DNA from: Candidatus Aenigmatarchaeota archaeon
Lineage (GTDB): Archaea; Aenigmatarchaeota; Aenigmatarchaeia; CG10238-14; SCSR01
Direction of reading: 5' to 3'
NCBI GenBank assembly: GCA_039090665.1
Contig: JAWCSL010000001.1
Location: 23,308-87,307, forward strand
Length of the DNA: 64,000 nt
The notes under the pieces: model-generated
Told to the model about the DNA's origin: nothing
The model's input: the letters and a program-made list of their open reading frames with translations, nothing else
Databases searched by the model: none
Program-made: the position numbers and the translations under genes
Shown here: one piece after another, positions 20,866 to 24,222 of the stretch
How the letters are laid out: the number at the start of each line of letters is the position of its first letter
Numbering within the stretch: the stretch's first letter is position 1

Positions 20866-23800
20866 TCACTAAGGCCTAACAAGCTGACCCCACTTGGTGG
20901 ATAGCTTGGCTTCGGAGCCGAAGAAGTACGTGGCAAGCTGCGATAAGCCTGGGGTAGCCGCATGCAGGCGTAGATCCCAGGATCTATGAATGCGAATCGC
21001 TGGCTTCGGCCAACTCCGAAAGGAGGGGGAACGCGCTGAATTGAAGCATCTTAGTAGGCGCAGGAAAAGAAATCAAATTGAGATGCCGTTAGTAGGGGCG
21101 ACCGAAAGCGGCAGAGGGCAAACCGAACTGGTTGGCGAAGAGCCAAACAGGATGTGGAGTTGTAGGACCTGTGTCCTTCCTATCCTAGCCGACCTGAAGT
21201 CTGCTGGAAAGCAGCGCCAAAGAGGGTGATAGCCCCGTAAGGGAAGGCTAGGAGGAAGATGGCAGGTATCCTGAGTACCATTTCCTGGATGGGAAGTGGG
21301 AAGCTGGGTGAATTAACATCCAACCCTAAATACTCCCGAAGTCCGATAGCGAACTAGTATGGTGACAGAAAGCTGAAAAGCACCGCGAAAGCGGGGTGAA
21401 AAGAGCTTGAAACCAAGTGGGGATAGTCAGACACGGCCCGGAAGGTGCTCCTTCGAATGAAATCCGAAAGGAGAGTAAGAGAAGGAGCTTACAGGGTCGT
21501 GTCGTCCGTGCGGAAACACGGGGCAGGGAGTTTGTCTCAGTGGTGAGGTTAACTTGCTTTCACAAGGTAGCCGGAGCGAAAGCGATTAGCCCGCAACTGT
21601 TCTTTATGGACAGTGAGGGGCAGGGTATGAAAGTGCCTGAAATCACTGGGACAAGACCCGAAGCCAGGCGATCTAACCCTGGGTAAGGCGAAGTCCCTCG
21701 AAAGGGGGATGGAAGCCTGCTACCGGTGCTGAGTTACAAATCGCTCGGGTGACCTGGGGTTAGTGGTGAAAAGCCTAACGAGCCTGGCGATAGCTGGTTC
21801 CTCCCCAAATGCACGTCAGTGCAGCCTGGTCGGAGGTAGGCAATGGGGTAGAGCTACTGATTGGAAGGTCAAGGACCGAAAGGTTCAGCCTTCCTGTCAA
21901 ACTCCGAATCCATTGCCACCTGAGAAGACCGGAGTGAGGGTGCTGGGGTAAGCTCGGCACTCGAAAGGGGAACAACCCAGCCTAGGGTTAAGGTCCCTAA
22001 ATGCTAGCTAAACGCTGAAGGGTGTCTGAACCCTCAGACAGTAGGGCTGTAGGCTTAGAAGCAGCCATCAGATAATAAGTGCGTAACAGCTTACCTACCG
22101 AGGGTTCGGGCCCCGAAAATGGAAGGGACTAAGCTAGCTACCGATACCCTAGACCGCGAAAGCGGGGGTAGGGAGGCGTCCTGCATGGGCAGAAGCCTCT
22201 GCGTGAGCAGGGGTGGACCGTGCAGGATTGAAGATCCTGCCGAAAGTAACAGCAAAGTTAGGTGAGAATCCTAACCACCTGAAGCCTAAGGGTTTGCCAG
22301 CAATGTTGGTCAGCTGGCAGTTAGCCGGTCCTAAGGGTGCTCTTAACCGAAGCACTCGAAAGGGAAAGCCGTTAATATTCGGCTGCCATGGGGATACGTG
22401 CGGCGACGCAAGCCAGTTTTCCGACGCTTCGGGATAGGCAGACGCAAGCTAACTGCCGAAGTGAGCGGAGTCTCTTAATGAGGAGAAGCTCATGAAGGCA
22501 GGAATGGCTCCTCGTATGAGGAGTTCTGCTGATTCCTGGAGCCCGTGAAAAGGAAAACTGGAAGGATTCCCCATGACCGTACCGAGAACCGACACAGGTA
22601 GGCTTGCCGAGAAGGCAAAGGTGTGTTGGGAGAACCCAGCCTAGGGAAATCGGCAAGTTGGCCCCGTATCTTCGGTAGAAGGGGTGCCTGTTCTCTCGCA
22701 AGGGAGAGCAGGTCGCAGTGACAAGGGGGAAGCGACTGTTTAACAAAAACGCTGGAGACCGCAAGTCCGAAAGGATGTGTACGGTCTCTGATGCCTGCCC
22801 AGTGCCGGTGTGTGAAAGCCCGGTTCAACGGGAAGAAGCCCCGGCAAACGGCGGCGGTAACTCTGACCGTCGTAACTCAAGGCGGTCATTTGATTTAATG
22901 ATATTCCGCTGCCTTGGGCGGCATAAGTAGCGTAATCCCTTGCCGTTTAAATGACGGCCCGTCTGAACGGCTTAACGACTTCCCCACTGTCCTGGGCTGG
23001 GACCCAGTGAACTCGCCTTTCCGGTGAATAGGCCGGAGACCTCCTGTGGGAAACGAAGACCCCGTAGAGCTTTACTGCAGTCTGGTGTTGTGGTAAGGTT
23101 GTGACTGCATAGAGTAGGTAGGACTCGCTATTAGGCTGAGGCTTCGGCCGAAAGCTGAGAGGAAAGTGTAACACTACCCTTTCGCAACCTTACCGCTAAC
23201 TCGAAAGAGGACAGCACCAGATGGGCAGTTCGGCTGGGAGTCTAGAAGTCTAAATGAGGAGTCCCTTAAGTTATGATTTTTTATGATTAAGGGCATACGA
23301 ACCGAAAGGCTTCTAGACCAGCAAGCGGTACGCCCTCGGTAAAGGATCGAGGGCGCCCAAAGGTCAGCTCATCCGGGTCATGGTAGAGTCTAGTAAATGA
23401 TTGGACCGTTCCAGAATGATCTTAATGATTTCTGAGGTAGCTGATGAGAATAGGCTCTACCACCCGCAAGAAATCCGGAGTAGAGTGTAAGCGCAAAAGC
23501 TGGCCTGACTGGATTCCGCAAAGCGAGGAATCCAGCCGCGAAAGCGTGGGCTAGCGATACTTCGGTTCCTCTTAATGGGGGCCGGAGGTATCAGAAAAGC
23601 TACCTCGGGGATAAACTAGCTAGGGCTGATTAAATTATTTTTCTTCATATCTAGCTAGTTCCCTAAAATGGGCCCGTGGCCGGCGAAAGCCCACTGCTCG
23701 AAGGGGTTTTTCGTCCCAAAGATAGCGAGCCTCGGGTTCTGAACTCGAGCCCTTCGCGCGGGTAAATTGACCCGGCGCGTTGGTGCGTCGATGTTGGCTC

Positions 23801-24222
23801 CCCCTCTCCTGGCCGTGCAGCAGCGGCCAAGGGTACAGGTGCCCACTGGTTAAAAGGGGACGCTAGCTGAGTTCAGAACGTCGTGAGACAGTTCGGTCGC
23901 TATCTACAGGAGGTGCTGGTCGTCTGACCGGAAGGAAGGGTTAGTACGAAAGGAACACCCTTCCGTGGCCTCTGGTCTACCGGTTGTCCATTTGGCATCG
24001 CCGGGCAGCCAAGCCATACGTGGATAAGAGCTGAATGCATCTAAGCTCGAAACCACCCGGAAAAATAGACGACCACTCTTGCTACTGGTGCGCAAGCATC
24101 GGTGGCAAGACGAAGGCCCCTGTAGACTACAGGTTTGATAGGGGAGAGGTGTAAGCCTCAAGCTTTCGAGCGAGAGGCGAGCCTGCTCCTACTAAAAGCC
24201 TGAGTTGTTAGGCCTTGATAAG
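20866..24222 (+). rRNA. rrl: 23S rRNA (~3.35 kb, boundaries ±20 nt; contains several short AT-rich insertions)
   Basis: The 5' region …GGTGGATAGCTTGGCTTCGGAGCCGAAGAAGTACGTGGCAAGCTGCGATAAGCC… matches the archaeal 23S start. The flanking processing helix is CCACAGGATCAAGGAG (20849-20864) paired with CTCCTTGATCCTGTGG (24224-24239). Insertions are seen at about 23263-23293, 23383-23461 and 23616-23660, plus an enlarged region up to about 23790. Confidence 0.85.

Follow-up and report, generated by a model that had tools for sequence, protein, structure and literature searches.

Candidate Bulge-Helix-Bulge Mini-Introns in the 23S rRNA Gene of an Aenigmatarchaeota Archaeon

We analyzed a 64,000-nucleotide (nt) stretch of the genome of a Candidatus Aenigmatarchaeota archaeon, a hot-spring member of the DPANN (assembly GCA_039090665.1, contig JAWCSL010000001.1, positions 23,308 to 87,307), referred to here as the window, which carries an archaeal 23S rRNA gene interrupted by five inserts (I1–I5). 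As judged from the gene and its relatives, these inserts are very probably archaeal bulge-helix-bulge (BHB) introns that are removed by protein-mediated splicing and that have lost their endonuclease gene, that is, mini-introns. The original prediction, made from the letters of the window, had raised archaeal introns as an alternative to expansion segments, and the comparison favors introns: the search for BHB motifs is positive for all five inserts, and the predicted junctions match those of related genes, in the case of I3 by length and core sequence.

Length of the 23S rRNA Gene

The gene occupies positions 20872–24215 of the forward strand and aligns with the Rfam model of the archaeal large-subunit (LSU) rRNA (RF02540, LSU_rRNA_archaea; 2578 bits) over model positions 1–2987. 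Its genomic length of 3344 nt, against the 2987 positions of the model, bears out the excess (~3.35 kb) that had been noted. Without the five inserts the gene measures 2994 nt, and the insert lengths, which total 350 nt, make up the entire excess. The sub-region alignment with cmscan contains four unaligned blocks, with 52 nt versus 2 in the model after model position 2029, 88 nt versus 2 after position 2344, 93 nt versus 4 after position 2400, and 130 nt versus 5 around position 2573. The several insertions of the original prediction are therefore real, as large unaligned blocks are present there, but their count was short, the 50-nt I1 (22875–22924) having been overlooked. Relatives aligned full-length to the spliced window 23S (~82% identity) show no other length difference of at least 15 nt in the window. 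The description of the inserts as AT-rich applies to three of them (31–43% G+C) and not to I1 (22875–22924, 48%) or I5 (23695–23765, 58%); the G+C content of the exons is 55%, and that of the window outside the rRNA genes is 28–37%.

Positions and BHB Geometry of the Inserts

A BHB consists of a 4-base-pair (bp) helix, here called H, two 3-nt bulges on opposite strands, and flanking helices (PMC5829648). Each of the five inserts is bounded by such an element with a 4-bp H and 3-nt bulges, three in the hBHBh' form (I2, I3, and I5) and two in the HBh' form (I1 and I4). All five lie on the forward strand; the E. coli numbering is taken from alignment to rrlH of MG1655, and the predicted cut, marked below by a slash, falls after the second nucleotide of each bulge.

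I1 (22875–22924, 50 nt) is located at E. coli 1927/1928, in the linker between helices 69 and 71 (H69–H71 linker). Its H pairs GUCG (22869–22872) with CGGC (22919–22922), the bulges are UA/A and AU/A, and the inner helix has 11 bp, with no outer helix. I2 (23239–23324, 86 nt) lies at 2252/2253, within the P loop of H80, and is a strict hBHBh' element in which GCUG (23233–23236) pairs with CAGC (23319–23322), flanked by the bulges GG/A and AA/G, a 12-bp inner helix, and a 3-bp outer helix. I3 (23380–23468, 89 nt) occupies the apical loop of H84 at 2306/2307; here CGGG (23374–23377) pairs with CCCG (23463–23466), the bulges are UC/A and CA/A, and the inner and outer helices have 12 and 2 bp. I4 (23613–23666, 54 nt) is found at 2449/2450 in the peptidyl-transferase center, where it adjoins A2451. 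The H of I4 is formed by GGGG (23607–23610) and CCCU (23661–23664), with bulges AU/A and AA/A, an inner helix of 11 bp, and no outer helix. I5 (23695–23765, 71 nt) sits at 2477/2478 in the apical loop, or tip, of H89; GCCC (23689–23692) pairs with GGGU (23760–23763), the bulges are AC/U and AA/A, and the outer helix has 2 bp. Its inner helix comprises 2 bp, a U.C mismatch, and then 7 bp. A strict BHB scanner that required a contiguous inner helix skipped I5, which was recovered when one mismatch was allowed. I4 and I5 are separated by a 28-nt micro-exon on the forward strand (23667–23694, AAUGGGCCCGUGGCCGGCGAAAGCCCAC) that supplies A2450-A2451 and the 5' strand and tip of H89.

Three hairpins had been noted in the original prediction. 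Their coordinates are right, but each is only the inner helix of a larger insert: CCCTTAA and TTAAGGG (23263–23269 and 23287–23293) form the inner stem-loop of I2 (23239–23324), GTAGAGTCTAG and TAGGCTCTAC (23383–23393 and 23452–23461) lie inside I3 (23380–23468), and AACTAGCTAG and CTAGCTAGTT (23614–23623 and 23651–23660) lie inside I4 (23613–23666).

Predicted Splice Junctions and Intron-less Relatives

Relatives were obtained by searching a metagenome collection with a 20-nt exon pattern, derived from the exon that separates the third block from the fourth, which gave 15 related 23S loci (designated by L-numbers). The insert size in each was read as the distance between conserved exon anchors flanking the site. 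At site 1 this distance is 58 nt in the window and 8 nt in relatives wherever both anchors were located, and at site 2 it is 86 nt in the window and 0 in relatives on the same condition. The window measures 108 nt at site 3, where most relatives have 19 nt, L019 has 103 nt, and L016, with weak anchors, has 48 nt. At site 4 (GGGGATA to TCGATG) the distance is 174 nt in the window, 49 nt in nine relatives, 176–214 nt in five, and 668 nt in L029.

The distances at site 4 correct the claim of a further expansion of ~150 nt in the peptidyl-transferase region: 174 nt versus 49 nt in intron-less relatives leaves an excess of 125 nt. Nor is this a further insert, since it already contains the third hairpin and consists of two introns of 54 and 71 nt with 28 nt of rRNA between them. 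The fourth region of the intron-less L028 reads GGGGATAATGGGCCCGTGGCCGGTGAAAGCCCACATTGACCCGGCGCG, from which it follows that the window has two inserts there, with 28 nt of genuine H89 sequence between them. Indeed, the micro-exon at 23667–23694 is continuous with its flanks in L028, L029, and L019, which are intron-less there.

The junctions that would result from splicing agree with these relatives. The I1 junction, GGTAACTCTGACCGTCGTA/AAGTAGCGTAATCCC (GTCGTA/AAGTAGCG), is identical in L015, L018, L019, L028, and L029. The I2 junction, GGGCAGTTCGGCTGGG/GCGGTACGCCC, is identical to that of L015 and L018, and splicing restores GGCUGGG/GCGG. For I3 the junction CCGGGTC/AGAAATCCGG equals that of L028, L029, and L018 in length, and its core, GGGTC/AGAAATCC, is identical to L028 and L029. 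The I4 junction GGGGAT/AATGGGCCC, in the 54-nt register, is identical to L028, and the I5 junction GCCCAC/ATTGACCC is identical to both L028 and L029. Around the introns the exons are intact and 95–96% identical to close relatives.

Several other placements were considered and rejected. BHB registers two nt shorter exist for I1 (48 nt), I3 (87 nt), and I4 (52 nt), but their product lengths deviate from the relatives, and only the registers given above reproduce the relatives' sequence for these three introns. No BHB could be fitted to a supposed 73-nt intron starting directly after GGGGATAA. The 3' part of I5 (GAGCCCTTCGCGCGGG) was taken as the 5' strand of H89 on the basis of an 8-bp pairing with CCCGGCGCG, an assignment that the intron-less relatives overturned: in them TGGGCCCGTGGCCGG is the real H89 5' strand, which places the second intron in the tip of H89. 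The 3' end of I5 (CGCGCGGG, within 23745–23780) can form 8 bp with CCCGGCGCG, the downstream exon sequence that makes up the 3' strand of H89. The resulting alternative helix imitates H89 and is in competition with the BHB; it is identical in L008 and L010.

A scan with a 3' exon pattern, using one genome per species, returned five Aenigmatarchaeota metagenome-assembled genomes (MAGs) from the JZ-1 and DRTY-6 hot-spring series, which are 88–97% identical to the 3' part of the window 23S. These contigs mostly end inside the 23S gene and are informative for the H89 region and for taxonomy only.

Homing Endonuclease and Intron Decay at Shared Sites

The intron sites are optional. Some relatives, among them L028, L015, and L018, have empty sites, and different introns are found in L008, L017, L019, L021, and L029, such that three of the five sites used in the window hold other introns in relatives. 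At 2449/2450, L029 contains a 619-nt intron with the same BHB (GGGG AU/A ... CCCC AU/A), which encodes an intact open reading frame (ORF) of 192 amino acids with two LAGLIDADG motifs (Pfam LAGLIDADG_3, E = 1.2e-18); among solved structures its best match is I-DmoI (E = 6e-6). L008 has a 569-nt intron at this position in which the ORF is broken by frameshifts and stops. Mini-introns without an ORF are present in the window (54 nt) and in L017 and L021 (35 nt), and the site is empty in L028, L015, L018, and others. The search for homing-endonuclease remnants proposed originally thus succeeds in a relative's 2449/2450 intron and yields nothing within the window introns, which at 50–89 nt contain no ORF and are too short for an endonuclease remnant. 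ORF-less members of the archaeal BHB rRNA introns are known (PMC4496867), so the missing ORF does not exclude the window introns from that family.

The inner helices at 2449/2450 share the core TAGCxAG in I4 of the window, L008, and L029 and differ around this core with compensating changes, and the inner helix of L017 is unrelated; the BHB geometry is kept in all four. Different inner-helix sequences at shared sites thus keep the BHB geometry by compensatory changes. A single intron type of 67–71 nt is common to the window, L008, and L010 at 2477/2478. I5 is 90% identical to the L008 and L010 introns, versus 95–96% for the adjacent downstream exon, and the internal hairpin of this type covaries (CUCGGGU/ACUCGAG versus UUCGU/ACGAG versus UUUGU/ACGAG). 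The more distant L015, L017, L018, L020, and L021 have longer introns of 92–144 nt at this site. Finally, an 84-nt intron of L019 at 2306/2307 is homologous to I3, with 71% identity versus 87.5% for the adjacent exon, and compensatory changes occur in the inner helix.

As a separate observation, I3 and its L019 homologue share the internal blocks AAUGAUU, CCAGnAUGAU, and GAGGUAGCUnAUGA, in which UGAUGA motifs resembling a C box occur. The two introns have no conserved D box, and there is no C/D match in Rfam; the Rfam search of the window introns (E <= 5) found no C/D-box or other known RNA families inside them.

Large inserts are also seen elsewhere in the 23S genes of L016, L019, L022, L024, and L026–L029. 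In window-equivalent coordinates these are ~80 nt near 22084, 65–81 nt near 22745, 738 nt near 23067, 155–235 nt near 23885, and ~620 nt near both 23865 and 23948. Group I models had no match to any of these inserts in the loci scanned, from which L024 and L026 were absent. These extra inserts point to a widespread intron colonization of the group.

Proposed Splicing and Its Weak Points

In the pre-23S transcript, each pair of exon–intron boundaries would fold into a 4-bp helix between two 3-nt bulges. By analogy with established archaeal splicing, the tRNA-splicing endonuclease (EndA) would cut after the second nucleotide of each bulge, and an RtcB-type ligase would join the exons and probably circularize the intron. 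The product would be a 2994-nt 23S rRNA with a normal P loop, peptidyl-transferase center, H69–H71 linker, H84 loop, and H89. The window also encodes a tRNA with the anticodon CAU and a ~35-nt intron after the anticodon loop (12438–12544, forward strand; Rfam, 53 bits; not called by ARAGORN), and the organism must therefore have BHB splicing enzymes anyway. As to origin, homing driven by a LAGLIDADG endonuclease would have brought the introns to these conserved sites, and deletions would afterwards have removed the gene, sparing only the BHB core that excision requires.

EndA would also free the pre-23S at a BHB in the processing stem, read from the sequence on the forward strand. Its 5' half (20845–20882) comprises an outer helix strand (20845–20864), H (20865–20868, GUCA), a bulge (20869–20871, CU/A), and an inner helix strand (20872–20882), and it pairs with the 3' half (24205–24243), which comprises the inner helix (24205–24215), H (24216–24219, UGAU), a bulge (24220–24222, AA/G), and the outer helix (24223–24243). 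The outer helix is a perfect 21 bp, and the predicted cuts are 20870/20871 and 24221/24222.

Several points weigh against this account. Excision, exon ligation, and circularization are deduced here from gene sequence alone. A relaxed BHB pattern gives 134 matches in the 64-kb AT-rich window and ~5 matches per shuffle of the 9-kb rRNA region. The outer helix is absent in I1 and I4, and the minimum-free-energy fold yields a clean BHB for I2 only. Furthermore, the intron-less relatives that span the I1–I3 sites are only ~82% identical in 23S, and the nearer relatives (90–96%) are truncated contigs. Since relaxed BHBs are common by themselves, what carries the argument is not the number of matches but the agreement of motif and register with boundaries that were defined independently. 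The lack of an outer helix in I1 and I4 suggests that the EndA of this lineage has a relaxed specificity; both relaxed forms of the BHB and a diverse EndA in DPANN have been described (PMC5829648).

A more adventurous set of ideas, which we regard as unlikely, would give the introns a role or a different ancestry. Eight BHB introns, the five described above and three in the 16S rRNA gene, could act as maturation locks that keep the pre-subunits translationally inert until EndA and ligase act, the sites being the decoding center (16S 1492/1493), the P loop, the peptidyl-transferase center, the H69–H71 linker, and H89. Alternatively, the excised introns could be functional circular RNAs, an idea based on I3 (71% identity with exons at 87%, and UGAUGA-like motifs) and the covarying hairpin of I5. 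In a third version, the 2449/2450 series would document how an L2449 homing intron turned into a mini-intron spliced by proteins.

Alternative Explanations

The main residual alternative to spliced mini-introns is excision without ligation, in which the inserts are cut at the BHBs and the mature 23S is split into as many as six pieces that the ribosome keeps together, much like bacterial intervening sequences. Sequence cannot by itself separate ligation from non-ligation, and the 28-nt micro-exon (23667–23694) would be an awkward ligation substrate. However, it is established that archaeal BHB cleavage products are normally joined by RtcB and that the known archaeal rRNA introns give ligated exons and circular introns. 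The breaks at G2252/G2253 and U2449/A2450 would moreover fall in the catalytic core, and a free 28-nt piece serving as one strand of H89 seems unlikely to assemble reliably. We consider fragmentation decidedly unlikely.

A second possibility is that the inserts are lineage-specific expansion segments kept in the mature ribosome. DPANN and Asgard rRNAs do show unusual length variation, and I5 is 90% conserved among close relatives, with one covarying hairpin. Nevertheless, the sites are the P loop, the neighbor of A2451, the H69–H71 linker, the H84 loop, and the H89 tip rather than variable surface regions; an 86-nt insert at G2252/G2253 or a 54-nt insert at U2449/A2450 would disrupt P-site and A-site contacts, which makes retention very unlikely. 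In addition, the inserts are missing from relatives with identical flanks, in other relatives these positions are taken up by different, unrelated sequences, among them a protein gene, and the BHB of every insert lies in the register from which splicing recovers the consensus. Expansion segments are thus very improbable.

Equally hard to credit is a decaying pseudogene or an assembly chimera in which the inserts are junk. In favor of this reading, rRNA genes in metagenome bins are often misassembled, and contigs of this organism from other samples usually stop upon reaching the rRNA genes or earlier. Identical sequences of the flanking ThiI protein and of the H+-pyrophosphatase are found on NCBI, JGI, ENA, and Logan contigs, many of them independent, of which only the NCBI contig JAWBUH010000003.1 (GCA_039000055.1, 52 kb) extends into the 23S gene. 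Against the reading, this contig is 100% identical to the window over 3701 bases, comprising the 23S gene and its flanks; as it is identical and yet shorter than the window, the 23S locus has been assembled at least twice. JGI and ENA assemblies of other samples likewise contain the 16S introns in identical form, homologous introns are present in other MAGs, and the exons score 2578 bits across the full model. Judged by sequence, the 23S exons seem to be fully functional, and they contain a compensated C2507U/G2582A pair of the kind expected in a working rRNA.

Self-splicing group I or group II introns can be practically dismissed for the window inserts. Reports of group I introns in DPANN rRNA do exist, with one in an Aenigmarchaeota LSU gene at position 1923 (PMC6125680), and 2449 is a recognized eukaryotic rDNA group I site, L2449 (PMC3511172, PMC1299323). 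However, inserts of 50–89 nt are much too small to contain a catalytic core (P3–P9 in group I introns, which are some hundreds of nt long). In 22850–23790, LSU rRNA is the sole Rfam family with a match at E <= 5, apart from a chance 26-nt match, and no group I intron reaches the gathering score in eight related loci, the 569-nt and 619-nt introns among them.

Other Features of the Window

The archaeal 16S rRNA gene (15562–17298, forward strand, Rfam) is 1737 nt long and 1464 nt when spliced. Its three predicted BHB introns are located at 16297–16375 (79 nt, E. coli 801/802), 16776–16863 (88 nt, 1197/1198), and 17145–17250 (106 nt, 1492/1493, between two decoding-center adenines), and all three predicted junctions are identical to the intron-less 16S of L015, L018, and L021. 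The 16S and 23S genes are 3.5 kb apart, with a gene for a 672-amino-acid H+-translocating pyrophosphatase (17526–19544, reverse strand; Pfam H_PPase, E = 5e-246) between them, and are probably not cotranscribed; the relative L015 has the conventional tight 16S–tRNA–23S order. A tRNA-Ala (20480–20551, Rfam) is also present.

Both rRNAs show base changes. Positions 1400 and 1498/1499 of 16S are universally conserved decoding-region bases; C1400 (~17065–17075) is U here and in the independent assemblies L004 and L034 and C in L015, L018, and L021, and U1498/A1499 (17251–17265) is CC (GUCGCCACAAGG), a change common to L015, L018, and L021. Around the peptidyl-transferase center of 23S, the unusual substitutions C2452U, A2453G, C2496U, A2497G, C2499G, and U2586C and the compensated C2507U/G2582A are located at 23667–23669, 23784–23795, and 23870–23880. 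The H89 sequence with the 2452–2453 and 2496–2499 changes is common to relatives such as L028.

The rRNA genes of DPANN MAGs are frequently described as aberrant, or assemblies break there. Predicted mature 23S (2994 nt) and 16S (1464 nt) rRNAs can now be given for this Aenigmatarchaeota lineage, and such corrected sequences are useful for phylogeny, for primer and probe design, and for rRNA annotation in DPANN MAGs.

Comparison with Known Systems

BHB introns in rRNA are classical in Thermoproteales and Desulfurococcales, with examples such as the Desulfurococcus mobilis 23S intron encoding I-DmoI and the 16S and 23S introns of Pyrobaculum and Thermoproteus. The crenarchaeal introns occur in conserved regions and include LAGLIDADG-coding as well as short non-coding forms (PMC4496867). 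The window introns resemble them in the BHB at the junction, in their location at conserved functional rRNA sites, and in their sporadic presence among relatives, and the endonuclease of L029 is nearest to I-DmoI among solved structures. They differ in that the host is a DPANN archaeon (Aenigmatarchaeota) and in that none of the five copies in the window has an ORF and each is only 50–89 nt long. The density is also high, with five introns in 23S and three in 16S, two of them only 28 nt apart. Thus, dense BHB-intron colonization of rRNA is extended from Crenarchaeota to a DPANN lineage.

DPANN rRNA genes have been reported to carry group I introns, sometimes alongside BHB introns (Nawrocki, Jones & Eddy 2018, PMC6125680); compared with those, the window inserts are BHB only, have no group I match, and lie at other positions. 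With archaeal pre-tRNA introns and the BHBs of pre-rRNA processing stems, the inserts share the motif and presumably the enzymes (EndA and RtcB), but here the substrate is the interior of the rRNA, and the introns would derive from mobile elements. The insertion point of I4, between U2449 and A2450, is identical to that of the eukaryotic L2449 group I introns, whereas the chemistry would be that of a protein endonuclease rather than a ribozyme and the window intron is only 54 nt. The element type is therefore well known, its arrangement is unusually dense, and current understanding is not overturned. Its most striking features are the high density, introns of such small size, a 28-nt micro-exon in the peptidyl-transferase region, and the clean decay series at 2449/2450, which across the window and its relatives forms a compact natural series of endonuclease intron, pseudogene, mini-intron, and empty site.

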